DNA of 64,000 bases from positions 1,550,001 to 1,614,000 of the forward strand of contig JAWMAR010000268.1 in NCBI GenBank assembly GCA_036785375.1, given 5' to 3'. This DNA is from Leucoraja ocellata (lineage: Eukaryota). Position 1 is the stretch's first letter. Each line of letters begins with the position of its first letter. Below the pieces are notes generated by a model. It made no database searches. It worked only from the letters and a program-made list of their open reading frames with translations, and was not told the origin of the DNA. Positions 1,808 through 57,349 of the stretch are shown here, in pieces. Made by a program: the position numbers and the translations under genes.

Positions 1808-2022
1808 AGGTAGACACAAAATGCTGGAGAAACTCAGCGGGACAGGCAGCATCTCTGGATAGAAGAAATGGGTGAAGTTTCGGGTCCAGACCCTTCTTCT
1901 GAAGAAGCGTCTCGACCCAAAACGTCACCCATTCCTTCTCTCCAGAGATGCTGCCTGTCCTGCTGAGTTACTCCAGCATTTTGTCTACCTTCGATTTAAA
2001 CCAGCATCTGCAGTTCTTTCCT
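1808..2022. mobile_element. Palindromic Penelope-derived short element with hammerhead-like core
   Basis: Inverted arms (tagacacaaaatgctggagaaactcagc / gctgagttactccagcattttgtcta); core CTGAAGAAGCGTCTCGACCCAAAACGTC at 1899-1926; flanked by imperfect direct repeat tacatagca(a/c)caaga. Confidence 0.8.
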
Positions 2023-2481
2023 ATACATAGCACCAAGAGGTCCCCAATTCATGTTTCTATAACTACCACATTGGAAATATCTCCATCCAAATTATTAAAA
2101 GCACAAACCTATAAACTTTAACTGATTATACGTACAATGTCCTGCACCACAGTAGCCAGCATTATTTAACATATTTCATGAAAACTCCATACAAATTAAA
2201 GATCAATCTGCCACTCATAAAATCTAATAAAGCAACCAAAACTATTGGTAAATTCCAAGTGTAGTCTCAAACATTTTTTTTTACAGTCATAGCAAGGCTC
2301 TTCCACTTCCTTTCTCCACCCCATTTGTAGTAAAGGGCAATATTCGATTTGCTAACCCTCTGCACCTGAGCCTGCTCAGCATTTATTCTCAAGCTCAAAT
2401 AAAGAGGCCAACATCCACATGACTCCTCTCACTGCCAAGAGAATACAAGGTTCAAATAAGTAAAAAAGTAATGTCCAGTAC

Positions 2482-2596
2482 CAGCATCTTCTTCAACCTC
2501 ATCATCATCTGTTTTTGCTTGCTTGTTTTCAGGGTCTTCAGTACTACTTGTTGACTGTTTCCTCTTTCTGCCTGGACCACCTATAACCTTCTTTCT
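2482..2596 (-). CDS. AKAP8: AKAP8-family gene A, NLS-containing exon (RKKVIGGPGRKRKQSTSSTEDPENKQAKTDDDEVEEDA)
   Basis: tcag|AGA...GCT G|gtactg; 115 nt, phase 0 to 1; homologous to plus-strand exon 33316-33421 and to the AKAP8 GRKRKQ...EPDTK motif. Confidence 0.9.
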
Positions 2597-3457
2597 CTGA
2601 TAAGAAACAAAGATAGCCTGCACTGAAATCAGATTTCAAACTATTAAGCATTTAACTCGTTAAATAAAAGGCCATTTAAAATTAATTTCAGGGTTTCTTT
2701 GGGTATAATTTAACCAAGGCCAGACGACAAAAAACGTTTAAAAATAAAACCCTATACATTTTACATCACACCAGTGTTGGAAACATGTTAATCTGCAATT
2801 CAAACCAGAACCAGACTAGTGCTGGTGTACCAATTACTGCTTGAAAATGCAAAATATTAGATTACAGTAATAATTTATTTCCCCCACAATTGTGAGGTTT
2901 TTTTTGTTTAATCACAGCATGGTATAATAAACATTCTTAAAAATGCTGATCAAAATGTTTTTGCCCAACCCAACTTTCCCCAATACAAGGACGACCCTTC
3001 CCCCCTCCCCCACCACTGTTAATCAGCTATGACCTAGTTTATATCTGAACTGCAAAGTCCAAGGACAACAGGTACTGCTTTGAGGGATGGGGCAAGTAAG
3101 AGTAAAGAGGAAAAACAAATCTTTTACAGTGTTACAACAAATTAAAACACTGAAATGCTGCACAGAATGAATTACTTTGAAGATGGTCGCACAAAGCTTG
3201 AAAACAATTAAATCATCTTAAAATCTGAACGTTTAATCAAATTCTAAATGCAGCTACAAATTCTTCCACAGATCGGAAAGATCCCTGAAAATTATATTTA
3301 TAGTCAAGCACATTAGCAGAATGAGAACCTGATTTAATATTAAAAAAAGGTTGATGGGCACTGCATTTCTAACTTGGCTTTTTTGCTCTTTCACTAATTA
3401 TACCCACTGGCCACTGAGTAAAATAAAAATGCTTTTGTTTTTAAGAAAGGTACTTAC

Positions 3458-3920
3458 GCCTCTGGTTCGAATCTTGTCTCTCCTTCGCTGTCTGCCACCA
3501 AACGCTCTTGCCGAGCCTTGAGCTCGGAACAGGTCCATTGGGATAATGTTTGGGGAGAAGAGCGAAGGGAGGTTTCTGGTGGAGGGGGCAGCATTGTAGC
3601 CTCTGCCTCCCATTGGCATCTCATTCCAATGTGCAGACATCCGCCTGGAACTTCCAGGCTGCATGTAGGGGTCATTCCAGTTTGCTCTCCTATTTGGAGC
3701 CCAGTCTCTAGACCAGTTCTGACCCCGTTGGCTACCATATGCTCTGTTGTGGTACTGATCTCTGCGAGTCCCGTAGGAGTTGTCGTAGTGGTCATAGTGA
3801 CCTCCATAGGAATCGTTATAATTAGGTCCAGAATCACCGTAACCATAGCCGTAGCCAGATCTGTACGGATCATGGTCATTCATTGAAGACCTGGAGTCAT
3901 AGGACTCATAAGGTGTAAAC
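3458..3920 (-). CDS. AKAP8: AKAP8-family gene A, large Y/G/R-rich exon (RFTPYESYDSRSS...LPSLFSPNIIP...IRTRG)
   Basis: ttcag|G TTT...GGC|gtaagt; 463 nt; ESYDSR and PSLFS motifs of AKAP8/AKAP8L. Confidence 0.93.
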
Positions 3921-4780
3921 CTGAAAGAGTTGCAGAGCAAGCAAGGAAGCTAATCAGTAGCTGGAAAGGACGATGGCACAAGCCTGCCAATCAGTGAAAG
4001 CAGACTAAAGACTAAACAGGATATTTCAGGTAATCATGGTGCTTGAGGTTTTATGTTGTCTGTAACATTGTCTAAATTACTAACTGCAGTAACTAGTGAT
4101 GGCTGAGCAACCAATACATCAAATATATCAGTAATGGAGCAAACAGCCTCTAGATGTTTAATGTTAAAATTGTTCTGTATGGGAATGGGTAAATACCCAA
4201 ACTTTGGCCACTTTTAAAAAGATAAATGATCCAACTATCCAACATTCACTGCAGTCCCAATTACATGTTAATTTGCTGTAAATCTCACCTAATTATTGAA
4301 AAAACTGTGCATTTTATAACAAGTTACTACAAACTATACTCATCACATTACCAAGCACAGGTTGCATTGCAGATGAAAATCCTTGGAGACCCATTCACGC
4401 TGCTAAAACAATTAACCAAACCTAGGGTCAATTATGCCGACAATCCTGGTGGTCTGAAAATGATTCGAATGTCTGGCACAAAATACCAAGTGAGACATAA
4501 GCTGAGTTAATTTAGATTTATACAATGTTGGTTAAATCTACGTTGAATCCATGCTTAAACAAGTTCAAGTTAAATATGGCAATATTAAAATATAAAATTA
4601 ATAAACCAGTGTTTTCTCACCATACTGGAGGCAAACACCAGTTTCTCTTTGGGGTTGGGCGGTGGAAGAGTCAACAGGGTACTAGCCTATTTATATTTAA
4701 AGTGCCACATCAATGCCGTTTCCAATTTGTCAACTTATTCCGTACAGTATTTTACCATCTAGTGACTCTCCAGAAGATAC

Positions 4781-4994
4781 CTGTTGAATTGGCCTGAAGA
4801 CCGAGAAGAGCCTGGTGTGTTATCACACTCTAGATGAGTGAGCATGTCCAGGCGTTGGTTGATCTTAGCGACGATGGAATCTGTGTTGGGGTTTTTAGGA
4901 GCATCCCAAGCCTTATTGCCAGAGTTATAGCCATAATTTCCTGAATAATCTCCTGAATTATCTTGGTTGTAATTGTAATCATAGCCATCATACC
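4781..4994 (-). CDS. AKAP8: AKAP8-family gene A exon (GYDGYDYNYNQDN...DSIVAKINQRLDMLTHLE...FNR)
   Basis: ttag|GG TAT...AAC AG|gtatct; 214 nt; AKINQRLDM is an AKAP8-family signature. Confidence 0.93.
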
Positions 4995-5136
4995 CTAACA
5001 GGAATAAAATACACATAATCAGATATTCAGATTATAAAAACACAAAAACTCAACAATAGAACCAGACCCATCAATTATCCCACAATTTAATCAGATCATG
5101 ATGGTTCTGCTCTTTACCCAATACTGAGATCATAAC

Positions 5137-5336
5137 GAAACACATAAAGTGTTGGGAGTGTAACTCAGCAGGTCAGACAGCATCTCTGGAGAGCGTGAAT
5201 AGGCGACTTTCAGTCAGGATCCTTCTTCATTCTGTCAGGCACGTCTGAAGAAGGGTCCCGAACCAAAACATCACCTATCCATGTTCTCCAGAGATGATGA
5301 CTGACCTGCTGAGTTACTCCAGCACTTTGCCTCTTT
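5137..5336. mobile_element. Palindromic Penelope-derived short element
   Basis: Same arms as 1808-2022; core CTGAAGAAGGGTCCCGAACCAAAACATC at 5245-5272. Confidence 0.75.
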
Positions 5337-5531
5337 TATTACAAATGTGAATATCTTCATTAACTAGATTAACCAAATTAAGAGCTGTACAAAGCACTTT
5401 ACATTCAAATCATATTGCTTCAAATACAATACATAATGTATTATGCAGGTAAAATATTTTAAACAGAACAATTCTAACCCCATTAAGCCCGCATGCTAGA
5501 TCTTATCAATAAAAGTGCTAAAGATATTCAC

Positions 5532-5579
5532 CTTGACCATCGTCTCCGCCTGCGTTCCAAGAATCATCCTCTCCGTACT
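5532..5579 (-). CDS. AKAP8: AKAP8-family gene A exon (YGEDDSWNAGGDDGQ)
   Basis: ttttag|AG TAC GGA...CAA G|gtgaat; 48 nt, same length and phase as paralog exon 23288-23335. Confidence 0.85.
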
Positions 5580-7984
5580 CTAAAAGAAACGGAATCAGAC
5601 AATAATTGTGTTGGTTATATCAACTAATAACATAAAAAAGCAAAACTTATGCTCCTCCACATTAGGATACAATTCCAGGGTACAACTGTTTCCTCAGATG
5701 ACCACTGTTCATGCAAGTCTAGCCAATGAACACTTGGAGGCGGTCGTCAGATAACATTTTTTTTAAAACAGAACCAGTGAAAACCACTGGTAAATTCATG
5801 GTGATCTTCAATTTAATTACACAACTCATACATCTATATAATAGATATGGTGGCCACAAAATTCCCAGCACATACTCCTTCTCATCCAGATAGTTTTGTG
5901 CCTTTTGCAATGTATTATGTGCCGGTTTGTGATGAGGTAAACATAATTAACTGGATGGTTATCTTGATCTGTGTTGTTTATCATATCAATGTTATTTAAA
6001 CCTTTAGGGTGGTCCTGTACGTCTGATAGGTAGTACACTGGGATGTAAGATTAAAAAAAGTATGGGGTGGTGAGGGGTGACAAGCTTTTACCTCCATAAG
6101 AAATCACGTTAAACAACAAATTAGATACTTTATTACTGAAACAATTCAAATATATTGAAGATAACCACGTAGCAGCAAAAAATAAGTTACAGGAGCAATT
6201 TCAAATAAGTTGAATATAGAACTTTATATATATTGAATACTGAATATGAATGGTAAGCTGTTATTGCAGACCTGATACAAACTGACCCCAATAAATGATA
6301 TAAATCTACAAATCGTGGAGCAGAATGTGACAAGAGGGAAAATACCATGTGTGAATATACTTGTGTAATGACTACACCAGGAAGAGACACACGTTTTTCT
6401 CTCTGGTAAGTAGATCTTCCTGTAGCAATGGCTGCAAAAGTTACCCACACACAATTAAAACATGTTCACACAACTGCATTGGCGTAGTAGAGAATACATG
6501 AACAACAGAGATCCTTTGAAGATTTTTCATTTAAATCTGCTGAAGCTAGGAGAAGCAGTCAAACTCAAGCCAGATATTTCAAAAAAGACCATTTAGGCAT
6601 TCTGATGATTTTTAGCCCTCAAACTTGCCAGAGATGCATTTCAACATCCTACATATAAACTTAATAGAAAACAGGTACAAGCTCTTGTTTCGAGTCAGAG
6701 GGCAAAGGGCAGCAAGTAACATAACCATTCTTAAACGTGCAGATCATGTACTGTAGCTGATGATGAATTCACATACATTACAAAGGTCAGTAAAACAGTG
6801 AATGATTGCTTGGTGGGTTGCCAACAAAAATAATTTCCAAAGGGGGGCAAGAATGAGAGCAAAGCAAGAGAGAGGGAAAGGGGACAGGGACAAGTTATAA
6901 GATCAATTATGAAAATGTCTTGAGTTCGATTAAATAATGGAATGGGCATTTCAGTTCTATTAGATGGCAAGTTAGTTCATGGGAACATCCATTTGAACTT
7001 CATGGTCAGGATAACGTGGTACGACAATTTTTGCCACAAAATGTCTGCAAGTTTCTGTTCTGATCTTTCATAATAAGTCAAAACAGTATGGCACCCACCA
7101 GAGTGGACCTGTACCATTAAATAAGTAGAACAAGCAACTGTGGGTCCCTTCATGCAAGCAATGGAGGCACCCTTACTGATAGTCTAAAGCAAAGTGCAAG
7201 GGAATAGTCTTAAAAAATCCTCAAATTCCTACATTTTTCAAAGACCACGTCGCAAAGAATTGGTAAAAGTCACTTAAGAATCAGCATTGTATGACAATCC
7301 CATGTACATTTGAATTGACATGTCCAAGCCTTTTGGATATGATATACAAGTACTGAAACATCAACATTAATGCTTCTGAATCTTATGTTCCCCAGCAAGA
7401 TACTTTTAGATACAAGATCCTGATAAAGCAAGGGAATTCTCGTAACTCCTTACTTTCCACATTTAACTGTACATATCAAGAAGCCAAAGATTCTGGGGAA
7501 ATGGATTCATTAACGATGAACCCCAGCGTTCTTATCACAATTTATGGCAACTGTATAAACATTCAAAGCTTTTGTTTTCACCGGCCAAATGATGTAGTGG
7601 CATGGGTTGGTAATTGAATTAGACATATAACCCTATTCACCCCACCCTATCTATCACCCCAAAGGACAAGCAATAGGATCTCCATACAAAACACAACGAA
7701 ATAACATATTAAATCTGCAAAGTATTATCACCCAGAGAAAGATAGTTATATATAATCAAGTGAAAAAATCTAAAGTGACCTCAAGATTGTGCAAAAGAAT
7801 GAGATTATTTTCAGTAACATAAAAAATGCTTGTTGCAAGTTAAAAAAAAAATTAAACCTACATTTAAAAATAAAATGCAAATGCATGAAACACAGATGCT
7901 GCATTTTTATGGACTATCAGAATGGCAGTCACCTAGCAGCATTGTGTCAACAACCTTGCCCTCAATGTCAGCAAAACAAAATAA

Positions 7985-9789: not shown

Positions 9790-10020
9790 TCCAATCATCC
9801 CGCTGAATCATCATGTCCCGCCACCCCGCTGACCTTCGCGTCCAATCGGTGCGATCATCAGACTCGCGGAAAGTCATTTACAGATTTATAGAGATTTAGA
9901 TTTTTAACGAATTACAAAATATGCGGGGAAATCTCATGTCTGACAGAAGGGGGAGGGGCACAGTGAGGCTGAACAGAAAAGGGGTAGGGAGTGCTGGGGA
10001 AGGCACACACATATATACAT

Positions 10021-12669: not shown

Positions 12670-14420
12670 AAACACAAAATGTGAGCAAGTCAGCCAGTCA
12701 GACCTTTGAGGAGGGAATGGACAAGCAACATCAGGTCCAACTGCCGCCAGGACATCAACCACCTCAAATTTTCCACTCCCCTCACCTACTCTAACCCCCC
12801 CCCCCCCCTGATTTTATCGTCTCCCCAAAATCCACAAGCTGAACTGTCCTCGCAGACCCATTGTTTCTGCTTGTTTATGCCCCACCAAATTAATTTCCAT
12901 GTTCATCCTATCCCCTCCCCCCCCCCCCCCCCCCGGTCCAATCCCTCCCTATGTCCAAGCTGCATCACACGCTCTTCGTCTCTTTGATTACTTCTGTTTT
13001 CAAGGCCCTCACTCTCTCATCTTTACTATGGATGTCCAGTCAATCTATGCCTCCATCCCCCACCAGGAGGGTCTTAAAGCTCTCTGTTTCTTCCTCGACT
13101 GCAGAACCAGCCAATTTCCGTCCACTAATACTCTCCTCCGCCTAGCAGAGCTGGTCCTTACCCTCAACAACTTCTCCTTCAACTCCTCCCACTTTCTCCA
13201 GATCCAAGGCATAGCTATGGGCACTCGCATGGGCCCTAGCTATGCCTGCCTCTTTGCAGGGTACGTCGAACAATCCCTGTTCCAGGCGTACACTGGCCCT
13301 ATCCCCATACTCTACCTCCGCTACATTGACGACTGCATCGGTGCTACCTCCTGGACCCATGCAGAACTCACTGACTTCATCAACTTCACCACTAATTCCC
13401 ATCCTGCACTCTTATTCACATGGACCAACTCTGGCATCTCCCTACCGTTTCTAGATCTCATCGTCTACAGCACAGGAAAACAAACTATTGACCGACATCT
13501 ACTACAAACCTGACTCCCATAGCTATCTTGATGACACTTCTTCCCACCCTTCTTCTTGTAAAGACTCTATCCCCTACTCCCAATTCCTCTGTCGACACCG
13601 CATTTGCGCCCAGGACGAAGTTTTTCATACCAAGGCATTGGTGGTGTCCTCATTAGACACTAGGTGCAGGAGTAGGCCATTTTGCCCTTTGAGCCAGCAT
13701 TCTTTAGGGAACGAGGATTCCCCTCTTTCATTATAGATGAGGGCTCTCACTAGGGTCTCCTGGAAATCCCGCAGCTCCACTCTCAGTCCCTCTCTCGTAA
13801 CAAGGAGAGAGTCCCGCCTGTCCTCAACTTCCACCCCATCAGCGGTCGTATACAACATATAATCCTCCAATATTTTCGCCACCTCAAAAGGAATCCTACT
13901 ACTGGCCATATCTTCCCATCTCCACCCCTTTCTGCTTTCCACGTAGACGGTTCACTCTGTAACTCCCTGGTCAACTCGTCCCTTCCCACCCAAACCAACC
14001 CCTCCCCAGGCACTTTCCCCAGCAACCACAGGAGATGGAACACCTGTTCCTTTACTTCCCCCCTCGAGTCCATCCAAGGAACCAGTCTTTCCAGGTGAGG
14101 TTGAGGTTAACTTGCACCTCCTCCAACCTCATCTACTGCATCCGCTGTTCCAGGTGTCAAAAGTCTCTACGTCGGCGAGACCAAGCACAGGCTCGGTGAT
14201 CGTTTTGCTGAACACCTAGGCTCAGTCCGCCTTAACCAAGCTGATCTCCCAGTAGCCCAGCACTTCAACTCCCCCTCCCATTCCCAATCTAACCTTTCTG
14301 TCCTGTGCCTCCTTCATTGTCAGAGTGAGGCCCAGGGCAAATGGGACTAACCGCATCTCATATTTCGCTTGGGTAGTTTACACCCCAGCGGTATGAATAT
14401 TGACTTCTCTAATTTCAGGT
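12670..14420 (+). mobile_element. Decayed Penelope-like element: reverse transcriptase plus GIY-YIG endonuclease, with an inverted terminal fragment at the 5' end
   Basis: MDVQSIYASIPH, GIAMGTRMGPSYACLF and YLRYIDD motifs (ORF 12899-13513); downstream frameshifted NLIYCIRCSRC...YVGETKHRLGDRFAEH...VAQHFN...IFRLGSLHPSGMNIDF. Confidence 0.92.
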
Positions 14421-14460
14421 GTCCTTGCTCTCTCTTCCTTCTCCACCTACATTCTTTCTT

Positions 14461-14760
14461 TAGAAACATAGAAATTAGGTGCAGGGGTAGGCCATTCGGC
14501 CCTTCGAGCCTGCACCGCCATTCAATATGATCATGGCTGATCATCCAACTCAGTATCCCGTACCTGCCTTCTCTCCATACCCCCTGATCCCCTTAGCCAC
14601 ATCTAACTCCCTCTTAAATATAGCCAATGAACTGGCCTCAACTACCCTCTGTGGCAGAGAGTTCCAGAGATTCACCACTCTCTGTGTGAAAAAAGTTCTT
14701 CTCATCTCGGTTTTAAAGGATTTCCCCCTTATCCTTAAGCTGTGACCCCTTGTCCTGGAC
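14461..14760 (-). mobile_element. CR1 LINE 3' fragment nested in the Penelope 3' UTR
   Basis: SRTRGHSLRIRGKSFKTEMRRTFFTQRVVNLWNSLPQ (CR1 ORF2 C-terminus) and an (ttctatgt)-type tail. Confidence 0.9.
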
Positions 14761-14794
14761 GCTGGAAAATAGAGCTGAGAGGCAGGACAAAAAT

Positions 14795-14905
14795 TGTAAG
14801 AGGGATCCTGATCCAAAACTTCTATTCCTTCCATAGATGCTGCCTGACCTGTTGTGTTACTACAGCACTAAGTGTTTTACTCAAGATTGTAGCCTCTGCA
14901 GTGGC
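14795..14905 (+). mobile_element. Penelope 3' terminal segment, same sequence as the short palindromic element arm
   Basis: ggatcctgatccaaaac...catagatgctgcctgacctg...ttactacagcac continues the Penelope element after the CR1 insert. Confidence 0.7.
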
Positions 14906-15078
14906 CTCAAGTGCAACAGGAAACAGGTAACCACATATATAAAACCAAAATGTAACTAATTAATATCCCCAATGCTAGTGCAAACAAAAACAAAGTGCAC
15001 CCAAAGACAGTCCACAGTTGAGGTTAGTGTTGTGTAGCAGTCCAAACCTTGCTGGGTGTTGGGACGAACCTATTATTG

Positions 15079-15512
15079 CAGAATACAAAGTACTGGAGAA
15101 ACTCGGCAGGTCAGGCAGCATCTCTGAACATGAATAGGCGATGTTTCGGGTCGGGACCCTTCTGGCTTTGCTAACCAGTTATCAATGTTCTCCAGAGAAG
15201 CTACCCTGCTGCCCAGTTACTGCAGCACCTTGTCTTTTTTAAAAACCAACATCTACAGTTCCTCGTGTCTTGATCTGCGGAGGGCATGGATTGGCGACGT
15301 TTCAGGTACGGAACCCTTCTTTGGAGGTCCCGACCCGAAACATCGCCTCGTCATGCCCCCCAGCATCTGCAGTTCCGCGTGTATACTCGTGTCGTTTTCA
15401 CCTTGCCCTTCCATATCTCTAGTCTCCCTATCCCCTTACTCTGTCTGAAGAAGAGTGTCGACACGAAATATCGCCCATTCCTTCTCTCCCGAGTTACCCC
15501 AGCACTTTGCTT
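15079..15512. mobile_element. Cluster of three Penelope-derived short elements
   Basis: Arms and cores at about 15079-15260, 15280-15375 and 15440-15512 (core CTGAAGAAGAGTGTCGACACGAAATATC at 15445-15472). Confidence 0.7.
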
Positions 15513-15559
15513 CTACGAGCTCTGCTTGTACCTCCATTAATGAGAAGGAAATGGAGACG

Positions 15560-16520
15560 GAATGAAAGAGACCGCCGAGATTGCCGCAGGGCCGCTTCAA
15601 AAAGGCGCGCTACGCGCAACACCGGGACCCCCCCTTGTGCCCGCCCGCGTGCACGAGTGCGCGAGGCCGCGCCCAGGACGGGGGAGGGAAGGAGACGCCG
15701 CCATTTTGTGGCGTTGAAGCGAGCGGGAGGGCGCGGGCCCTTTCCACTCACCGTCCTCCCGCTCGCTCGTAAACCCACTGGAAAAACAGATAATATTTAC
15801 ACCACCCGCAAATCTAGCCTAGAACCCGAACCAAAAAAAAAGTTTTATAAGCGTTATTTAAACTGGAAAGTGATTTACTTAGCACGTGGAAAGCGCGCGC
15901 CACACACATTTCTAACACGAGTTGGGGGGTGGGGAGCGGTCCTTTAATGAAAAGGAACTCGGCTTTCTCTTCAAAGTGCAATATCCATGTATTTTAGTGT
16001 TTGCTTTTTACACGATAGGAGTAAAAGAGAAAAGGCGTTCACCCAAAAGAGTGAGCCAGCCATGCTGGCGGGTAGATTGACAGCGGCAGCAGCCTAACGC
16101 ATGAGGCGCTGGTGGCAACTCGACCCAGTCAGCGGGCGACATGGGGAAAGGCCCGCCTGTAACTAAGGCTAGCCTAGCGAGGAAAAAAAAGGATTTGCAG
16201 CGCACGGGGTGGGAGCGACACCGAAAGCAATACTGGCGAATAGTTGGCGATTGCACCACTGCGAGCTTTATGAGCGCATTAAAGAACAATTCCAGAATAA
16301 TCCCGATCAGACTAACCTCCGTAGCGACCGTCCATTGTGATCCCGCTTCAGCCAGGAACACTCGGGCCTCGGCGACGTGGTTACGTCAGACGCATGTTGG
16401 GTCACGTGAGTCGTCGGCGTCGCCACCGTCGAGTGGTCACGTGGCTGCAATCAGTGCTATGGTCACGCGAGCTTCACTGTCGACCAAAGATGGCTACTGC
16501 GCTCTTTTCCCACAAGGTCG
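15560..16520 (-). promoter_or_regulatory. CpG-island promoter and first-exon region of gene A
   Basis: CpG-dense; E-box/CRE-like motifs GTCACGTGAG, GTCACGTGGC, GTCACGCGAG and TTACGTCA at 16381-16471; YY1 motif at 15697-15714; Kozak-like gccagcATGG on the minus strand near 16063. Confidence 0.75.
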
Positions 16521-16569
16521 GAAAGTCCACAATTGGTGGCTTAGAGTCTTAAAGTTTTGTAAATTCTTC

Positions 16570-17065
16570 TCATGGTCGGAAAATGATCTTGAACTAAATA
16601 TATTATTAATCATATTTCGCTTGGGCAGCTTACAGCCCAGTGGGGTATGAATATATAGATTTATCTAACCTTAGGTCACTTCGACAAACATTCATATTCA
16701 GATTCAACTTTCATTGTCAGTGTACAGTACAGAGACAACGAAATGCAGTTAGCATTTCCCTGGAAGAGCGACATAGTATGTGAAAACCCTTCCCCTCTTC
16801 ATTAAGTCAGTTCACTAGTTCACAACTATGTATCCCCCTTGGGCTCACACCTATCTCCAGCCAACAGTCAGTGTATCAGGAACCTCCTTGCCTGGGGTCA
16901 TCTCTTGCTGGCCCTGATTTGTCCTGTTTTTCCCGCATTTCCAATTTTTTGCCCCACTCTCCCTACAAAAAGTCTGAAGCAGGGTCCTGATCCAAAACGT
17001 CACTTACCCATTTTCACCAGAGATGCTGCCTGACCTGCTAAGTTGGTCCAGCATTTTGGATCTAT
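16570..17065 (+). mobile_element. Penelope 3' fragment (end of ORF plus 3' UTR with hammerhead-like core)
   Basis: IFRLGSLQP ORF end homologous to 14358-14420; core CTGAAGCAGGGTCCTGATCCAAAACGTC at 16974-17001; small unrelated insert at about 16690-16790. Confidence 0.75.
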
Positions 17066-17539
17066 ATTTAACTTAAAAACAATAGTCTCATTTGAAGTTG
17101 AGAGAAAATTCTTCATACAGAAAAGTAAATCTTTGGAATTTTCTTTCTAAACACTTGGAGTTACAAGGATAAAATGGAAAAGTGGATCTGAGGTACAGAA
17201 GAGAGCAAGTAAAGGCTAAACCAGCTTGCATTATTATGTTCTTTAAACATTTCCCTTTGTCAAGTTTATACACTGTAAGAATGTGCATGGTACAATGGCG
17301 CATTTTTGCGATAAGGATGCAACGTAAATGAATGTTGTTTCAATTAGAGATTACAAAAAGTAGTGGACTCCACTCGGTCCATCGTGGGTACTGGCAATCA
17401 CCTCCATTAAAGGGATCTGTAGAAGGTGCTGCCTCAAAAGTGCAGAGGGGAATTAATTATATTACAGAGTACACCAGGCAAGGATGGTGCTACAGACTGA
17501 ACCGTTCAATAAAGTATTGTGTTTAATTATTGGGTGAAC

Positions 17540-17725
17540 CTCTGAGTTACTCCAGCATTTTATGTCTACATCCAGATATGCTGCCTGCCCCGCTGAGTTA
17601 CTACAGTGCTTTATGTCTATCTCCATAGATGCTAGACACAAAAACGCAGGAGTAACGCAGCAGACAGGCAGCATCTCTGGAGAGGGGGAATGGGGGACGT
17701 TTCGGGTCGAGGCCCTTCTTCGGAC
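17540..17725. mobile_element. Penelope-derived short element arms
   Basis: gagttactccagcatttt repeats; minus-strand core CCGAAGAAGGGCCTCGACCCGAAACGTC at about 17696-17723. Confidence 0.7.
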
Positions 17726-18682
17726 TCCAGAGCCCGCTGAGTCGATCTCCAGAGATGCTGCCTGACCCGCTAAGTCCAGCTCCAGAGATGCTGCCTGACC
17801 CGCTGAGTCCAACTCCAGAGATTCTGTCTGACCCGCTGAGTCGATCACCAGATATTTCCGGAAAGCATCTTGTCCAGAAATATCACGATTTGGTTTGGGA
17901 ACTGCTCTGCCCAGGACAAGAAGGCTTTGCAGAGAGTAGTGCGTTTGGCCGAACGCACTAATGGAACTTCACTCGCCCCTCTGCAGGATCTATACATCAG
18001 AAGGTGTAACTCCAGAGCCAATAAGATCCTGGGAGACCCCTTCCACCCCTGCAATGGACTGTTCCAGCTGCTACGGTCAGGCAAACGCCTCCGTTGCCAT
18101 GCTGTGAAAACAGAGAGGTTGAGAAGGAGTTTCTTCTCAGAGGCCATTAGGACTGTAAACTACCTCACCAGGGACTAACTTTACTGTACCATTCTACTGT
18201 TTTGTTTTTTTTTAAATTGCTGTTTTTTTCCTTTTTCCTTCCTCCCACAATATGTAATATGTAAAATATGTGATTCTGTTCCATTCTGTTTGTAGTTTGT
18301 TTGTTTTTCGCACAAAGTCCACGAGCATTGCCACTTTTCATTTCACTGCACATCTCGTATGTGTATGTGACGAATAGACTTGACTTGAGATGCTGCCTGA
18401 CCTGCTGAGTTGATCTCCAGAGATGCTGCCTGACCCGCTGAGTCCAGCTCCAGAGATGCTGCCTGACCCGCTGAATCCAACCTTGGAGATGCTGCCTGAC
18501 CCGCTTAGTCTATCTCCAGAGATGCTACCTGACCAGCTGAGTCTATCTCCAGAGATGTTGCCTGACCCACTGAGTTTCTCCAGAGATGCTGCCTGACCCG
18601 CTGAGTCTATCTCCAGAGCTGCTGCCTGACCCGCTGAGTCTATCTCCAGAGATACTACCTAACCCGCTGAGTTGCTCCAGCG
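17725..18682 (+). repeat. 33-bp minisatellite (CTCCAGAGATGCTGCCTGACCCGCTGAGTCTAT), about 12 units, split by a LINE
   Basis: About 3.5 units at 17747-17852 and about 9 units at 18387-18682; the unit is a segment of the Penelope-derived arm. Confidence 0.9.
17853..18386 (+). mobile_element. 5'-truncated Rex1/Babar-type LINE
   Basis: ITIWFGNCSAQDKKALQRVVRLAE...DPFHPCNGLFQLLRSGKRLR...TERLRRSFF; 3' UTR and (gactt)n tail. Confidence 0.88.
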
Positions 18683-18719
18683 CTTTCTTGATACAATGAT
18701 GCATTATGCAGATTAGACG

Positions 18720-19680: not shown

Positions 19681-19684
19681 TTTA

Positions 19685-20778: not shown

Positions 20779-20942
20779 TGTAGGAAGGAACTGCAGAGTG
20801 CGGGTTTAAACCGGAGATAGACACAAAATGCTGGAGTATCTCAGCGGGTCAGGTAGCATCTCCGGAGAAGATCACCTATTCCTTTTCTCCGGAGATGTTG
20901 TCTGACCCCGCTGAGTTACTCTAGTTTTTTGTGTCTATCTTC
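20779..20942. mobile_element. Palindromic Penelope-derived short element, core deleted
   Basis: Inverted arms; flanked by a 16-bp imperfect direct repeat cagtgacaagcttttg / cagtggaaagcttttg. Confidence 0.8.
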
Positions 20943-21285: not shown

Positions 21286-21974
21286 ACAATCGAAACATTC
21301 ACAGTGTATATGGGAATAACGTTTATCGCAAGATAAAGCCAATCATGTCCAATTAAAGGGACTCCCAATGAAACGGATAGTTAATCAGGGCTGCTCTCTA
21401 ATTGTGTTAGGATTGTTCAGTTGTGTGATAACAGTTAGGAAGTGGAGAATGGACAGATCTGAGAGGAGATCATAGTTAAAGTAAGAAATGTTGCTGTAGG
21501 TGTAGAGATTTTAAAATGTGGAGCGATTGTAATGTGTGATTGGAGATCCGCTTTTGTGACGAGCAACACAATAGTCGCCTGGGTTAAGCGCCATCCAGTC
21601 GTGTTTGAATCCTCACTTGACTTTCTGAAGATTGCGACCTAAATGTAAATAGCAATGGGGGTGAAATTGGCATGTAATTTCACCATCTCTTGCACACCTT
21701 GGCCATTTAGTTATCCTTGACCTCACTATCAGCTCACCGCTCACCATCAGTGAGTGTGTATGATTGAATCTTTTCTGACCTTATAGTTTGGGTATTAAAT
21801 ACAGGGCATTGTCCGAAAATGCTCATCCATAAACACTTTGTCCACTTGCCCCTTTCAATTTCTTAAGTTTCGTCAAGCGTTGGCCTCTACACATTGTCTG
21901 AGGAAACGTTCCTGAACATGTTTGACAAATTCTACCTCGTTTAAATCGTTTACACTGACATTCCCAGTAAAGTA

Positions 21975-22068
21975 AAGTTTGAAGAAGGGTCTCGACCTGA
22001 AGCATCACCCTTTCCTTCCCTCCAGAGATGATGCCTGTCCCGCTGAGTTACTCCAGCATTTTGTATCT
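21975..22068 (+). mobile_element. Penelope-derived short element, single arm
   Basis: ttgaagaagggtctcgacctgaagcatc...ccagagatgatgcctgtcccgctgagttactccagcattttg. Confidence 0.75.
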
Positions 22069-22740
22069 ATTCCCGATCAATATTGGGAAAGTTAAAATCC
22101 CTTATTACAAAAACCTTATTAATCCTGTAATTGGCTGCAATCTCCTGGCATATTTGTTCTTCTAATTCCTGTTGACTATTTGGGGACCTGTAGTACAGTC
22201 TCAACAAGGTCAACATCACGTTCTTATTTCTCAGCTCCACCCATATAGCATTGCTGGATGACCCATCAGTAATGTCATGTTTGACCACTGCCATGACATC
22301 CCTCTTTATCAATAAAGCAACACCCCCTCCTCTTTTATCCCCACCTCTATCTCTCCTGAAGCATGTACACTGTAACATTAAGCTGCCAGTCCTATCTCTC
22401 TCTTTTAACCAGATTTCTGCAATGGCTAATTCCAGTCGCACATATCTATCCACGCCCAGAGTTAATCGGCCTCTTACATTAAAATAGATGTAAATTAAAA
22501 CATTCCTTCCATGCTCCCTGCCTTTCTCCTACCTATTCTCTTCGCAAAACATTCTTTCATTACCATCCATTATTGTCTTCCAGCCTTTCACCCACCTTGG
22601 TTCTGCATTTGATCCTGGCACCAGGGTGGCAGCACACCATCCTGGAGTCTCAACTGCTGCCATAGGATGTCCTGTCTACACCCTAACTAGAGTCACTTAC
22701 CACCATGGCTCTACCTGATGTTACACTTTCCTGCTGAATC
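22067..22740 (-). mobile_element. CR1 LINE fragment (APE endonuclease, plus probable ORF1 remnant)
   Basis: AIAEIWL...FRRDR...GGGVALLIK...IWVELRNK...YYRSPNS...DFNFPNID. Confidence 0.85.
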
Positions 22741-23478: not shown

Positions 23479-23915
23479 GTGGCAGCATGGTGCATGTGGT
23501 AAAGCTGATGACTTACCTATCCAGAGACCTAGGTTCAATCTTGATTTATGGCGCCATCTCGTTTGCACATTCTCGTTATAACAATGTGGGTTTTCTGTGG
23601 GTGCTCCGGTTTCCTCCCACATCCTTAAATATGGGTTGGTAGATTAATTGGCTAATATAAATTGCTGCTAATGTAGGCAGTAGAATTTGGGGAGCAGTAG
23701 AATTTGGGGAGGAACTGATGGGAATTTTGGGGCGATAAAAGATGAGTGTAAAAATGAGTTGTTGATAGTTGCAGTGAACTCGCTGAGCTAAATGGCCTTT
23801 TTCTGTGGATAGACACAAAATGCTGGAGTAACTCAATGGGACAGGCAGCATCTCTGGAGAGAAAGAATGGGTGACGTTTCTGGTCTTCTTCAGACTTTCA
23901 TGTGTTGTACTTCTC
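23479..23915 (+). mobile_element. V-SINE-like element with a Penelope-derived arm inserted at ~23808-23895
   Basis: ggtggcagcatggtg...ggttcaatc; gggtgctccggtttcctcccacatcc domain; inserted gatagacacaaaatgctggagtaactc...cttcttcagac. Confidence 0.75.
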
Positions 23916-34276: not shown

Positions 34277-34454
34277 AGACGGAACTGCAGATGCTGGAAA
34301 ATCGAAGGTACACAAAAAAGCTGGAGAAATTCAGCGGGTGCAGCAGCATCTATGGAACAAAGGAAATAGGCAACTTTTTGGGCCGAAACGTTGCCTATTT
34401 CCTTCGCTCCATAGATGCTGCTGCACCCGCTGAGTTTCTCCAGCTTTTTTGTGT
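34277..34454. mobile_element. Palindromic Penelope-derived short element, subfamily B, 16-bp TSD
   Basis: Near-perfect inverted arms; exact direct repeat acaaatgatatattta at 34261-34276 and 34455-34470. Confidence 0.88.
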
Positions 34455-38429: not shown

Positions 38430-38620
38430 TTTAGACACAAGGAACTGCAGATGCTGGAATCTTGCCTGGAACATAGTGCTCATGTAACAGTGGGTCAGGC
38501 AACATCTCTGGAGGATTTGGTGACATTTCAGATTGGCACCTGTCTTGGGACCGGAAAAAGACCCAACCCAAATCGTCACCTCCAGAGGTGCTGCCTAACC
38601 CGTTTGAGTTACTCCACTTT
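38430..38620. mobile_element. Diverged Penelope-derived short element
   Basis: ggaactgcagatgctggaatc...ggtgacatttc...ccagaggtgctgcctaacccgtttgagttactcca. Confidence 0.65.
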
Positions 38621-39283
38621 TACGTGGTGTACAGAATTGTTATATCGCTGGTCTAACATTTGAGGTACATAAGAAGTCCATGAAAACCAATTATCTTCTC
38701 ATATAGCTTCGAATTAAGTTTATTCTCCTGTTGCAGCTGATTTAATGTGCTCAGGTCTTGAACAATACTGCATTTTCATGGAACCTGATTTAAAATCAAT
38801 GCTCTCCAAGTACATTGGCATCAGTTAGCCCCCTTCACTTATCTCGGAAATCATTCTTATGTGGTTTACAATTATTTATTACTCAAATACATTATTTTTT
38901 CCACTTCTGTAGTACTTCCTTGAATTTGCTTTCTACGGGTTTCTGAAATTTAGCCCGAGTTTACCTGTAGAGAGGTTATAAATTTAATTGAACAATGGAA
39001 GGTACATTTTATTCTCCAAAATGGAATCAAGTATCTCAAAGCCCTCATCTGGGAGTGGCGTAGGTAAAGATGTTGTCCAGCATCTCTCCACCTAAGATTC
39101 CAATATGGCCTGTTCTATAATGTGATTTTAAATAGTATTGGGGTTGGTCCTTTTCTTGATGTGTAAAGAAAATGAACACTTTGTGCCTATTAATTACAAG
39201 ATTCAAAACAATATAAACACAGAAATCTAATTGTAAAGTAGCTGTCTTTGTTCCTGGTTTACCATTCTTTGCTTCCTCACCAG

Positions 39284-51535: not shown

Positions 51536-51680
51536 CTATTTCTCAGGCTCAGCAGACGTGGAGATCTCTTCGCGAACAGCCTCCACCTTCGGGAAGTTCA
51601 CGTCCAGGATGTGTCGTTGAAGGTGTCTCACCCATTCTTCCTGAATTGAGAGAGGCCCATGGAACTCCACATCACAAAAC
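51536..51680 (-). CDS. WIZ: WIZ-like gene, terminal coding exon ([30 protein letters not shown]...)
   Basis: aaag|G TTT TGT...TAG; 145 nt; near-identical to the WIZ C-terminal finger [30 protein letters not shown]. WIZ neighbours AKAP8L in human. Confidence 0.9.
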
Positions 51681-51981
51681 CTTTTGGGAAGGAAAGATGC
51701 CACTGTTAATCTAATCAACTCACGGTTTGGCTGAATTGTTATCACACCATCCCACCCAGCAACTGCCTCTCAACTCATCCACACCCACAAATGTTGTTCT
51801 GCAACACTATTACCACAGCAGAAAGGTGTCACTGGTTACAAATCCTGGAATTCCTGTTGTAACACCATTATGTTCAAGGATGTTCTGAGAGTTAGAGATG
51901 AGCAAAAAACAAAACTCACCCAGGCCCAAATTTCACGGACCAATGGTTAAATGCATTTCACTGTGAAGGCGGCGCACTCAC

Positions 51982-52186
51982 CTGCATTTCAGAGTATAGA
52001 TGTTTCCTATAAATTTCACCAGTGAGAGCGGCTCAGGTTTCAGGACTGGAAAGATCACAGGCCTGACTCGGAGAGGTTTGGGTTCCTCTGACTTTGACCT
52101 GAACGTCTTTGTCTCCTTCCCCTCCTCTCGTTTCGGTGACAAGTTCTCTGTGTATATCGCTGGCTTTTGTTGCTTACGCTCATTGT
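51982..52186 (-). CDS. WIZ: WIZ-like gene, penultimate coding exon (...RVRPVIFPVLKPEPLSLVKFIGNIYTLKC)
   Basis: ttcag|AC AAT...TGC AG|gtgagt; 205 nt; SLVKF(V/I)GNIYTLKC is a WIZ signature. Confidence 0.9.
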
Positions 52187-53418
52187 CTGAACACGAAAGA
52201 GAAACCGTTAGCTTATCATCTTATTGAAATACATACACATTATATCCATTAAACCTTATGCAGAAGACAGCTTCAAAAATAATTTCAGATGTGGTAAACC
52301 TGCCTGTACACTTAAACCCTCCAAAGATCACTGCTTAACGAGCACTACATTACTCCCATGCCGTGGTTTATAGGGTTAAATATTTGCCAGTACAAAAGGC
52401 ACTTAGGCACTATTTAATTAAGAACAGTATGTTGACAAATATCTGATCCCATACCACTGGCTAAATGAAAAAAGACAAAATTATTCGAGCATCTGTGGGG
52501 ACTATCGTGCAGGGGGGGAAAATCATTTAACTAGAACAGTAATCCAATTACAATTCCAATGCAAGCTATATTCAATCTAATTGTGCAGAAACATATCAAG
52601 TTATTAGATTTCAGCTATACTGAATGGTCGTGTCTATTGTAGAGTTTTGGATGGGGGAAAAAAGTAACATTATTAGAATATTTACTTTTTTTTTAAAGAA
52701 TAAAAACTCTGGTTAATGCAAGTGGTAATTTAGAGGGTTTAACTGCTTCTACTGGACAGGACAGACAATTACTCCACATGTGCCAGGAATCAAGCAGGTA
52801 TAACAGTAATGCCATTTATCAGAAAGGTGTTCCCACAACACACGTTCAGATTTAGTGCCAAATGAATTCTTTAAAGTTACACTCTTTAAAAGGACAGAGG
52901 GAGTCAGTACAATCCATTTCTTCTACTCTCCTAACTGTTAACCAACCTTTCTCTGAATTCGTTGGAATCTGAAAATTGCGCTTGTGAGGTGAGTCACCAA
53001 ACCGCATGCAAACGGGGCTTGATTTCAATCTTATACCGGATTAACTTACTTACACATTACAATGAATTAAGCACCTTGGCTCCGTTTCTATACAGAAAAA
53101 GAGTGCAAGAACAAAAGGCACAATAAATACAATCCACTCACGTGCAAATTAAAACAAAAACTTACATACATAAGCAAGCAAAAGCTGCATCTAGTCCCTG
53201 AACTTCTAGGGTTAGGCTTTGCATTCTCAAGCACGTCATGGAATAGACGCTTAACTTCATTAGTGGGGACCAACTTCGTGTCTGGATTACAGCATGTATC
53301 ATCACACACAGTTTCCTTTCACAGTGCAATTGCAATTTAACAAGCTTTCTCTTCGGCACTGTCAAAGTTCACATTTAGTTTTTTTTTGGTTAAGTTATAC
53401 AAAGCCAAAGGGTCTCAC

Positions 53419-53592
53419 ATGTGTCGGTGAGTGCAGGTTCAGCCTTTTCGTGGAGTTCCTCAAACTGAGACAGACTCGGTAACTTCCTTTTCAATCCAGA
53501 TTTCAGATGGCCACGCATATGGTTGGAGAGGCCTACACCCGTGGTTAGTGTCACTCCACAATACTCACAGGTTCCTAACTTGACTGGGTGCT
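53419..53592 (-). CDS. WIZ: WIZ/ZNF644-type C2H2 zinc-finger exon (TCEYCGVTLTTGVGLSNHMRGHLK); not in the ORF track
   Basis: aacag|AG CAC CCA GTC AAG TTA GGA ACC TGT GAG TAT TGT...; a candidate donor ACA T|gtgaga gives 174 nt, phase 1 to 1, compatible with the next exon. 3' boundary uncertain. Confidence 0.65.
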
Positions 53593-53947
53593 CTGTTGTC
53601 CAAAATGAAATTAAGATTCAGTTACCACCCTGCCTTCCACAGTTTAATTCCTAATTTAATTTGAGGTTCTGGCAGGTCTCAGCCTAGTTCCTAGTGGACA
53701 AGAGCCCACAGCACTTCAAAGGCTCATTAATTTAGCAATGATTGTCTGCAGATTTCTTTTAGCGGATGGTGTGTGAAATGGAAATAGAAATTAACACATA
53801 CCACTTGGGGCTGCTCTTGGGACACCTGGGGGAAACGCAGGCAAGGAGAGAGAGCTAGTGGGCACTCTGCATCACGGGCGAGACCCTCTCTGACTAGGGA
53901 GTTCTCAACGACTGCAAAGCAGAAAAATGCTCCACTTTCACTCGCAT

Positions 53948-53949
<2 letters not shown>

Positions 53950-54023
<74 letters not shown>
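53950..54023. repeat. (CA)n microsatellite, about 36 units
   Basis: Uninterrupted AC run. Confidence 0.98.
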
Positions 54024-54026
<3 letters not shown>

Positions 54027-54300
54027 TCGCACATTCATTCCTCATCCATGCATCATGCCAGATATTTGGAATGGGAAAAAGATGCAAAGTAAAGGAAGCC
54101 CCAGAGCCCATTCAACCATCAGCATTTAGTCCACTCAACGATCAGCATTTTCTATTGAACAATTATTTCCTTCCAACTTATCAATGTTCTTCAATGCACC
54201 GTTTTTTGTTTTAAATTACTGCGAGATTAAATCTGGATACAAGGTTTACATTCAAATATTTTGATCCAGTCTTCGTCTTATTATTTGAGAAATTAACAGA

Positions 54301-54360
54301 TTTCAAACCTTTCAGAATCCAGCGCTTCTAATGAAGTGCTGGATTCTGAAAGGTTTGAAA
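54301..54360. repeat. 60-nt near-perfect inverted repeat (28-bp stem, 4-nt loop)
   Basis: tttcaaacctttcagaatccagcgcttc-taat-gaagtgctggattctgaaaggtttgaaa; one non-Watson-Crick pair. Confidence 0.9.
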
Positions 54361-54467
54361 ATTGAAAAGACCCCGTAACTGGAGAAAGGATTAATAATGT
54401 TAGCATGCATGGATATTTTCCAATAATTTAGCACACGGGCCTATATCTGTTAATTAGTATTGTTTTG

Positions 54468-54558
54468 GAAATAACTGCAGATGCTGGTTTAAATCGAAGA
54501 TAGACACAAAATGCTGGAGTAACTTAGCAGGACAGGCAGAATCTCTGGAGAAGGAATA
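54468..54558 (-). mobile_element. Penelope-derived single arm with ~11-bp TSD
   Basis: aactgcagatgctggtttaaatcgaagatagacacaaaatgctggag; flanked by tagtattgttt on both sides. Confidence 0.75.
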
Positions 54559-54874
54559 GTATTGTTTCTCAGCTACGATACAAACCCATTCACCCTGCTG
54601 GAATGAGCTATTACTGCATACAGCTCCCGCCCACCCAAGTTTGGCAACACATAGAGTAGTCCCCCAACCCTGTCCACAGATGGCCCACCTTAGTGCAGCA
54701 CCTTTTGGTCAGGCCCCAACCAGAAAGTCCCATTACATTCTCATTTTACCCCCAGAATTTCCATAATGGATAGACCTCAACATACATGGTGCCTCTAACG
54801 TAGCAAAGACATCCGTAAGCATTTTACAGGAGAGTTACCAAATACAAATATGATACCAAGCTAAGTAAGGAGAA

Positions 54875-55032
54875 AGGACACAAAATGCTGGAGTAACTCA
54901 GCATCTCTGGAGAGAAGGAGTAGGTGAAGGAGTCTGAAGAAGGGTTCAGACCCGAAACATCACCTACTCCTTTTCAACAGAGATGCTGCCTGACCTGCTG
55001 AGTTACTCCAGCATCTGCAGTTCCTTCCTACA
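54875..55032. mobile_element. Palindromic Penelope-derived short element with the best-preserved hammerhead core
   Basis: CTGAAGA-A-GGGT-TCAG-ACCC-GAAAC-ATC at 54934-54961 between inverted arms. Confidence 0.8.
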
Positions 55033-55419
55033 CAAGAAGAAAAGGACAACAGCCAAAAGACAATCCAAATGGCAGAACGCAAGGAATGCCTCGGTGCAGG
55101 CAAGAGCCTGAAGCAAAGTTGAATGATTTGCAATTCCAGAATTTAGGGCCTCAGCGTTGAAGGTGTAGCTTCAAATGGTGCAGCAATTACATTTGGGAAT
55201 AAAAAGGAACGCAGGAGAAAATGGGCTGCTGGAGGAACTCAGCGTGTCAGGCAGCATTTGTGGAGGGAAATAGAATGGTGGCATTTCAGGTTGAGACCAC
55301 TCATCTGGACTGAAAGAGATGAGATGGCCGTATAAAGACGTGAGGCAAATCTGTGATCTCCTGTCTTCACTTGAATGATCCAAGACTATATGGTGCTAAA
55401 GGGCCATTGGGATTTGTCA

Positions 55420-55515
55420 AGTCTGAAGACTGGTCCTGACCCAAAACATCACCTAGCCATGTTCTACAGGATGCTGCCCGACCCACTCAGTTACTTCAGC
55501 ATTTTGCATTTTTCC
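55420..55515 (+). mobile_element. Penelope-derived single arm with 12-bp TSD
   Basis: Starts just upstream of the core (tCTGAAGACTGGTCCTGACCCAAAACATC); ggatttgtcaag on both sides. Confidence 0.75.
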
Positions 55516-57129
55516 CAGGATTTGTCAAGCCCTGGAAGGGATTTAAACATACGGGAGCCAAGTGGGTAAGCAAGTTCAATGGGACGATGTGAAGAAGGTT
55601 ACAGACACCTTAAGCTTGGGCCGAGTTGAAAAAGAGGGGCCAAGCATGCACTGGAATTGGTGAGTCTGGAGATAACAAAGTCATAAGACTTCAGATGCAT
55701 AAGACTACAGCAGCATACAGCAACATTACCAGAGTTGAAATAGAGGTACTGGAATGGCAGCACATGGCTTGAAACACTACTGTGGGTCATGTAATAAACC
55801 AAACTGGCAAATGGCCGTGTTCACTTTCAGATACATTTCCGGGAGAGGGAAGGAGTCAACAGCTAAGAAACAGAAGCATGGCCTTAATCTTCCCAATATT
55901 TACTTGAAAAACATTTATGTTTACCCAGCCATGGATTCTGACAAGCTCTAATAGTTTAAAAACTGTAAAACGATGTCGGGGAGAAAACACTTGGGCCATG
56001 TGTTTGCAAGTGAAAATTAAAACCGTGATTTTCACTGACAGCTTCTTCCCTATAGTAACCCACTAAAGTCTAGCATACCCCCTTTGTGCATTCACAACAA
56101 CAATCTGGAAGCCAGTCAGATTCTCAACTCCAACATAAAGAGTATTTGGGCTATGTTCTTGGCCAGTTTAAAAACCCCAACCAGAACATTCTGCGGTTCA
56201 ATGAAATCTCAACTGAAATCACAACCAGTGACTACATTCAGTTTGTGGTAAGGAGATCTCAAGATCAGTGCTTGACATGAGATACAAGCCATTTTAAAAG
56301 CAACACCCATTGAGATAGATACATGTCAGAGCAAAACCTTGCAAGCCATGAATAAACACAGATATGATGCACTGCCTCAACTCAATCTCTACTTCGTTTC
56401 AATATTTAAAGAGATATCATGTTTCCTCGTAGCATAGGTTTAAATAGACTAAACTTCTGGGGCAGTTCCCAGCTTTTCTAATGGACAGATTAAAAGCAAA
56501 TACCAGCAAGGGCAAATTTCAGCTTCAAATTTTTGCTCTCATTTAAAATCGTAGGGAGGCAGTAACTAAACTGTTGAAAGGTATTTTGGAATACACTAAG
56601 TTCCCTCCCTTCACCTCCATTCCGTGCAGTTCAAATTCAGGCATCTGCTGAGGAAAAATGTTCTCAGTGATGGGACTATCAATGCAACGATACAATTAAA
56701 AAGTTAAAAGCTAATCCACTGATATACAAGCAAAGTTGCAGCTCACAACCAGGACCACAGGATCGGTTTTGCTGTATTTTGTGGGGAGGGCTAACACAAA
56801 GTATTGCTGCTAACTCAAATGTGGTAGCAAATTTGTTAAAACATTAAAATAACTACTCCTGCCACTCTTATCCAATCAGTTCCAGTAAGAATGTTTTAGA
56901 CCAGGTAATATTAATTTTGGTATGAAGATATTTTAAACAAACAAACTGCTAAAAAAGCAGCATGAGTAATAAACGATTACAAGTAAGTAGCAAAGAGGAG
57001 GATGACCGAATGTTTAGTGCAGAAGGCAACAGCTTATTTTCTGGGTGAGAAATTGCATTCGAAACAGTTCACCTGAAACAAGAATTAATCATTTCCTCAA
57101 TGGCGAATTCCTAAACATATAGCATGTTG

Positions 57130-57349
57130 TTTAAGAAGGAACTGCAGATGCTGGAAAATCGAAGGTAGACAAAAGTGCTGGAGAAATTCAGCGGGTGCAG
57201 CAGCATCTAGGGAGCAAAGGAAATAGGCAACGTTTTGGGCCGAAACCCTTCTTCAGACTGAAGAAGGGTTTCAGCCCAAAACGTTGCCTATTTCCTTCGC
57301 TCCATATATGCTGCTGCACCCGATGAGTTTCTCCAGCATTTGTGTGTAC
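57130..57349. mobile_element. Palindromic Penelope-derived short element, subfamily B, cores on both strands, 14-bp TSD
   Basis: ...ccgaaacccttcttcagaCTGAAGAAGGGTTTCAGCCCAAAACGTT...; direct repeat catatagcatgttg at 57116-57129 and 57350-57363. Confidence 0.88.

Follow-up and report, generated by a model that had tools for sequence, protein, structure and literature searches.

Probable Penelope-like terminal-repeat copies with degenerate hammerhead motifs in a 64-kb window of the skate Leucoraja ocellata

The repeat family described here is dispersed over a 64,000-nucleotide stretch of the Leucoraja ocellata genome (assembly GCA_036785375.1, contig JAWMAR010000268.1, positions 1,550,001 to 1,614,000; hereafter the window), and its closest described systems are Penelope-like elements (PLEs). 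In PLEs, an inverted 5'-truncated copy is described, often with a tail at one end only (PMC8557442, Craig et al. 2021). Inverted pseudo-long terminal repeats (pLTRs), a one-sided tail, target-site duplications (TSDs) of 8-10 bp and junction palindromes have also been reported (PMC3846280, Arkhipova et al. 2013). Penelope minimal hammerheads have a bulged base after A9, a G10.1-C11.1 pair and a palindromic 15.2-16.2 stretch, and are reported in Xena, Poseidon and Neptune of fishes (PMC4209133); dimer cleavage was treated by Lunse et al. (as cited in PMC6765202). In PAc, a Poseidon element of Anolis, the tail lies between two start sites of the reverse transcriptase (RT), both target strands are nicked and extended, and insertion needs no hammerhead cleavage (Frangieh et al. 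2024, PMC11167929). Retrozymes of the non-LTR type (LTR, long terminal repeat) are present in the one chondrichthyan sampled in a recent preprint (10.64898/2026.07.22.740005).

Each component of the skate repeat is already in print for other Penelope elements, and the repeat is a further example. With endonuclease-bearing (EN+) Neptune elements it shares the RT, the Cys linker and the C-terminal GIY-YIG, together with head-to-head inverted pLTRs, a 30-40-bp tail at one end, a TSD, a junction palindrome and partial tandems (PMC8557442, PMC3846280). It differs in that most insertions here consist of the pLTR only and their 5' junctions cluster at the hammerhead edge; its TSDs of 11-17 bp are also longer than the 8-10 bp of Adineta elements. 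With the minimal hammerheads of PMC4209133 it has in common the core boxes, the extra base 9/10.1, G10.1-C11.1, the palindromic 15.2-16.2 and the lack of loop 3, and both occur mostly as single dispersed motifs with some opposite-strand pairs, whereas the skate motif has a stem II of 4 bp, a helix I of only ~2 bp and A at N7. The tail lies between two end points and insertions span an uncleaved hammerhead in PAc and the skate alike, with no read ends at the cleavage site; PAc belongs to a different PLE clade, and the skate element is known from sequence alone (PMC11167929). The passages of PMC4209133 consulted and one of its supplements yielded no chondrichthyan minimal hammerhead, and its figures may hold some. 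Titles and abstracts yielded no skate or shark account of the repeat, with skate genome full texts, Repbase and Dfam outside this search.

The repeats are probably 5'-truncated and inverted copies of a Penelope-like terminal repeat, likely made by the element's own enzyme at insertion, and carry mutated, likely inactive hammerhead remnants. The parent element is represented by a relic of its open reading frame (ORF), across which tblastn with RT and GIY-YIG homologues aligns from 12812 to 14398. In this relic RVT_1 is matched at E 2.4e-6; the Pfam GIY-YIG match alone is weak (E 0.17, below the cut-off). The nearest named relatives of the RT piece come from Amblyraja (82%), rays and sharks, and a PDB sequence search with a full-length homologue gave no match. 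Homologues P0049, P0061 and P0081 carry a CX4CX2C linker of the CX2-5CxxC class, which is degenerate in the window relic. Because such a linker between RT and EN is given for Neptune and Nematis alike (PMC8557442), and the preprint reports only Neptune and Poseidon from vertebrates (10.64898/2026.07.22.740005), the repeat would be the pLTR of a Neptune-type EN+ PLE, Neptune being assigned by elimination.

The ORF-end motif occurs at 14363 and 16615, with an arm of the repeat downstream of each. The original prediction had placed the repeat behind Penelope ORF ends and derived it from Penelope; both statements are borne out by the RT/GIY-YIG relic and by the arms behind the two ORF ends in the window. 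For the arm named at 14795 the linkage holds, but CUGA is lost and a 310-bp insertion parts the arm from the ORF end. Six pieces related to this inserted repeat lie elsewhere in the window, and we take it to resemble the tail of a CR1-type long interspersed nuclear element (LINE). The features concerned are:

12812..14398, plus strand: broken Penelope-like ORF with RT, degenerate Cys linker and GIY-YIG; several stops and frameshifts in three-frame translation.
14456-14765: another repeat, 310 bp, between ORF relic and arm.
14790..14925, plus strand: arm that follows the ORF relic; it has lost CUGA, and its tail is degenerate.
16610..17070, plus strand: C-terminus of a second Penelope ORF, then a pyrimidine-rich 3' region and an arm whose core (16974) has A9>C and G12>A.

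Arms were searched with a hidden Markov model (HMM) built from 7 arms and run over the window, the reversed window serving as control. Of the 45 matches obtained, 4 have E>=0.39; the 41 at E<=0.001 divide into 29 arms and the 12 units that make up a 33-bp tandem. The best match in the reversed window had E = 0.39, and the family is real. The 29 arms group into 19 loci, a density of ~1 locus per 3.4 kb. Nine of the 19 loci are head-to-head pairs, with partner arms 72-93% alike, and 11 of the 29 arms are single and 5'-truncated. Homogenisation of paired arms was considered and is not supported, the partner being the best match for 4/18 arms and among the top three for 12/18; paired arms thus share a subfamily, nothing more. 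DNA scans of other collections gave no related locus in viral contigs and two in metagenomes, both chance 22-nt matches without a surrounding arm.

The remaining loci are as follows; those marked as pairs occupy both strands.

1808..2023: head-to-head pair, centre 1900, tail on right arm; TSD of 15 bp with one mismatch (1793-1807 / 2024-2038).
5136..5340: old head-to-head pair, arms 77% alike; no tail or TSD found.
15080..15265: head-to-head pair, inner ends truncated, tail on right arm.
15273..15378: short head-to-head pair; an internal deletion joins the right arm to the tail.
15380..15515, plus strand: pyrimidine-rich leader and arm; core 15445, the sole pass of the relaxed test, antisense to the host gene.
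17535..17620, plus strand: partial tandem of two arm ends, both 5'-truncated.
17633..18690: arm on the minus strand (core 17723, U4>C), then an arm-derived 33-bp minisatellite in two blocks (17733-17852 and 18387-18680) with an unrelated insertion between them.
20780..20941: head-to-head pair lacking cores; left arm with a degenerate tail (by eye); TSD of 17 bp with two mismatches.
21974..22072, plus strand: single arm from the hammerhead 5' edge; C3>T, A15.1>G.
23808..23897, minus strand: single arm in which stem II is deleted.
34277..34454: head-to-head pair that belongs to a second subfamily, its centre within stem II, tail on left arm; perfect 16-bp TSD (34261 / 34455).
38432..38630: old head-to-head pair, left-arm tail, marginal 8-bp TSD.
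54466..54556, minus strand: single arm, truncated at its 5' end and bearing a tail; perfect 11-bp TSD.
54881..55040: asymmetric pair, core 54934, tail on right arm.
55200..55345, minus strand: divergent arm with pyrimidine-rich leader, core 55308.
55422..55517, plus strand: single arm starting at hammerhead position 2.1, perfect 12-bp TSD (55410 / 55518).
57130..57349: head-to-head pair centred at 57257 on a 4-bp micro-palindrome, left-arm tail; both cores G12>A; perfect 14-bp TSD (57116 / 57350).

The anatomy of these loci is that of ordinary Penelope insertions. TSDs were sought at 13 loci. Six of these carry one of 11-17 bp, scoring 11-16 where the null maximum over 300 pairs was 9, and 2 carry a marginal one of 8 bp. 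One TSD-like match (15251/15365) is a repeat of two tails and was discarded. In 8 of the 9 pairs one arm, and only one, carries a tail of 30-40 nt (detected in 7 by motif search, in 1 by eye), and no pair has it on both, so the element ends are asymmetric. Centres of inversion vary, even inside one subfamily (34382 versus 57257); a deletion between short repeats can explain the centre at 34382. The arms run through the predicted cleavage site and are hence not 3' cleavage products, an origin that was considered and rejected; two arms starting near the site retain 2 upstream bases. The TSDs and one-sided tail agree with the earlier reading of the repeats as truncated Penelope products rather than miniature inverted-repeat transposable elements (MITEs). 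That they form a mini-retroelement family propagating non-autonomously, as was also proposed, is not shown, given the varying centres and this anatomy.

The hammerhead is a property of the family majority. The motif alignment comprises 19 arms; the other 10, without the 5' half, were not aligned. In its majority sequence the core boxes are present, A9 is followed by an extra base, stem II is 4 bp long and opens with G-C, a palindromic ACGU stands at 15.2-16.2, and helix I has ~2 bp. On sequence features, this majority fits the published minimal type I hammerhead, as do the four sequencing runs described below; the motif claimed for the family consensus and the position of its cleavage triplet are both supported. 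The centre had been given as CTGAAGA-A-GGGTC-TC-GACCC-GAAAC-GTC. With up to 3 mismatches this 28-nt pattern has 5 matches in the window (2-3 mismatches each) against 0 in 100 shuffles, but no exact copy. CTGANGA alone is slightly enriched (47 versus 34.8 expected; 3/100 shuffles equally high). At the core positions listed earlier, CTGAAGA is present in 7/9, but 16974 reads CTGAAGC, and at 17696 lies the GTC end of a core on the minus strand, which begins CCGAAGA at 17723.

Stem II has 4 bp and a tetraloop; 5 bp around a loop of 2 nt would be sterically implausible. It does stay pairable, with 87.5% of its cells paired among the aligned arms, but it is 4 bp and not 5 bp long and shows no covariation above shuffles: no measure beats them (88-235/500 as high), and between subfamilies the stem changes are only one-sided compatible.

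Single copies in the window depart from this majority, and calling them ribozyme-bearing goes too far. No arm matches the strict core, 3/19 keep all 12 core letters and only the arm at 15445 passes the relaxed test. Core 54934 keeps 12/12 core letters and 4/4 stem II pairs, and its G16.2>A breaks the palindrome. G12, the general base (PMC6155905), is A in 8/19 arms. Copies decay mainly at CpG. The changes amount to 12-15% at C15.2 and 18-22% at G16.2, compared with 11-15% at the loop CpG and 11-22% in loop or tail; being as frequent in the core as in loop and tail, they indicate that copies are not protected. In the non-CpG columns of the core 10% of cells depart from the majority, versus 30% in other columns, which would fit conservation between subfamily masters or selection in them.

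Folding predictions give stem II a probability of 0.00 in all 10 element contexts, the palindromes included; the isolated 54934 arm alone is predicted to form it (0.7-0.8). For the majority motif, the purine-rich core is predicted to prefer pairing with pyrimidines downstream of it; a dimer of hammerhead-like form, lacking helix I, reaches a predicted -12.7 kcal/mol versus -20.8 kcal/mol for the best dimer. Hairpins are thus predicted to bury the core, and the window copies, mutated or locked in such hairpins, are likely inactive. Rfam scans, whose queries did not include the majority sequence, returned 13, 36 and 3 matches at E<=10, none of them a hammerhead; only hairpin-shaped microRNA models appeared, below their thresholds.

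The 5' ends of the arms are not evenly spread. By eye, 13/29 arms begin at -5 to +1 of C3, 12/29 spread over the next 57 nt and 4/29 continue upstream. The Poisson P of this cluster is 3.5e-6 for 10 independent events, a post hoc value that is void if copies descend from truncated masters. The ends gather at the hammerhead 5' edge and not at the cleavage site. This edge is a 4-bp micro-palindrome, on which the pair at 57257 is centred, and also resembles a 3' splice site; in a Drosophila virilis element an intron end lies at helix I (PMC4209133). We infer fold-back of nascent cDNA at the micro-palindrome as the preferred account.

A mechanism can be proposed by analogy with PAc. The GIY-YIG nuclease would nick both target strands, and RT would start at two sites of the pLTR RNA, one giving a tail and the other not. 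Copying uncleaved RNA, RT would often stop or fold back at the micro-palindrome of the hammerhead 5' edge; a stop would leave a single arm, and fold-back a head-to-head pair. The hammerhead, probably a weak, dimer- or protein-assisted ribozyme, may have mattered in active masters and not in dispersed copies. It is conceivable, though we hold it only tentatively, that the 5' edge is a programmed stop or fold-back point for the Penelope RT, the hammerhead acting as a structural insertion signal rather than as a nuclease. If so, the folded ribozyme, the micro-palindrome or a splice acceptor would set both the ~130-nt unit and the centre of the inverted pLTRs, and skate genomes would hold a very large natural set of junctions on Penelope inversion and tail formation.

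Several observations weigh against the reading of the repeats as truncated and inverted Penelope products with inactive remnants. A TSD was not found at 4/13 loci tested, and the scans of viral contigs and metagenomes yielded no full-length element with two pLTRs. The contrast of 10% and 30% is confounded by subfamily mixing and by noisier alignment at the edges. Genome-wide, ~40-45% of copies may keep G12, C15.2 and G16.2, if these are independent; a sizeable minority may therefore keep the core letters, and inactivity is argued for this window only. Clustered 5' ends also fit fixed-length non-autonomous masters.

This last point leads to the rival that survives best, namely that arms and palindromes are self-propagating non-autonomous elements (retrozyme-like or like short interspersed nuclear elements, ~130 nt), whose RNA the hammerhead processes and Penelope RT copies in trans. 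It is an unlikely account overall. Besides the clustering at one point, it draws on head-to-tail joints from the arm end or tail end to 1898 (20 and 9 contigs, run X1) and on the derivation of animal retrozymes from pLTRs (10.64898/2026.07.22.740005); non-LTR retrozymes are likewise pLTR-related, non-coding and equipped with a type I hammerhead (PMC7229834; 10.64898/2026.07.22.740005). Retrozymes, however, are head-to-tail tandems with complete hammerheads in consecutive units, whereas the skate copies are head-to-head or single and decayed. Tandem Repeats Finder detected no run of at least two consecutive hammerhead-bearing units in the window, the sole arm-derived tandem being the coreless one of 33 bp. 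Unit ends miss the cleavage site, inversion centres differ within one subfamily, and the joints number tens among 221,418 contig pieces and also fit ordinary partial tandems.

Sequencing runs bear on the family as a whole. Four runs were aligned to 1860-2060 of the window, recruiting 221,418 and 241,968 contig pieces and 19,133 and 45,502 RNA reads, totals that are not copy numbers. Palindromes skew such data: hairpins bias libraries and break contigs, and the reference copy is without 4 central bases. In 4/4 runs G holds the majority at 1908 (89-92%) and at G12 (56-67%, a share biased low by the reference copy used). Upstream of the core, the loose ends of reads and contigs are rich in pyrimidines or in A and T and terminate in CAG, and the leaders at 15445, 16974 and 55308 resemble the pyrimidine-rich ones. 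The mapping of RNA ends that had been suggested showed no pile-up of read ends in 2 RNA runs, a weak test, insensitive because decayed copies swamp the signal.

Three further observations come from these data. A 66-nt arm-derived head-to-tail junction, 1978->1920, is seen in 101 and 66 RNA reads and only 2 and 1 contigs; without the CUGA half it is not a ribozyme unit. Tail-to-tail joints 1984->2016 and 1984->2019 (40 and 17 contigs, run X1) connect an arm end to an inverted tail and suggest insertion at the end of another copy. In single-cell run X23, reads over 1895-2027 are 2-9 times commoner on the arm minus strand, possibly because oligo-dT primed internally on the antisense leader, which is purine-rich.

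Two AKAP8-like paralogues lie head-to-head in the window, with start codons at 16335 (minus) and 18882 (plus), the start of each gene being CpG-rich, and a gap of 2.5 kb that consists largely of Penelope remnants. The minus gene has three short exons with 97-100% identity to an Amblyraja radiata protein; a fourth match, which is longer, reaches 80%. These matches point to a skate-like host. Gene context was assigned up to 42.5 kb, and 134 ORFs lie beyond. The statement that the motifs sit in host introns holds for 11/19 loci (locus 1808 assuming that the gene runs off the window), but 3/19 lie between the two start codons and 5/19 (54-57 kb) are without an assigned gene.

This intronic placement and the occurrence of the family in RNA reads are what can be said for host-domesticated intronic ribozymes cutting AKAP8-like pre-mRNA. 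Domestication is nonetheless highly improbable: 0/8 arms on the transcribed strand of the two genes have an intact core, the best-kept core, at 15445, is antisense, and the frequent A at G12, the predicted lack of stem II in every whole element folded and the missing read-end pile-up, insensitive as that test is, point the same way. An origin as DNA-transposon MITEs with an incidental hammerhead likeness, to which the long inverted arms with TSDs and the lack of an Rfam hammerhead match lend some colour, is just as improbable, since TSD length varies over 11-17 bp, 11/29 arms are single and 5'-truncated, the majority carries the A9 bulge, G10.1-C11.1 and palindromic 15.2-16.2 of Penelope minimal hammerheads, and the arms follow Penelope ORF ends, which largely refutes it.

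Two neighbouring features are recorded here. The arm-derived 33-bp minisatellite (3.6 and 8.7 copies) lies ~200 bp upstream of the plus-gene start codon, its blocks split by a 535-bp insertion that is presumably a LINE 3' end. A near-perfect palindrome of 757 bp occupies 225-981, its arms being 98% and 93% complementary; single in the window and unrelated to the Penelope repeat, it is possibly a MITE.

The known association of pLTR, minimal hammerhead, inverted pLTR and tail is extended here to a very abundant skate repeat, which might wrongly be annotated as a MITE or as a microRNA hairpin. Its long hairpins may be a source of intronic double-stranded RNA. The role of the Penelope hammerhead and the origin of inverted pLTRs are open questions in the literature cited here, and the clustering of 5' junctions makes both testable by genome-wide counting.

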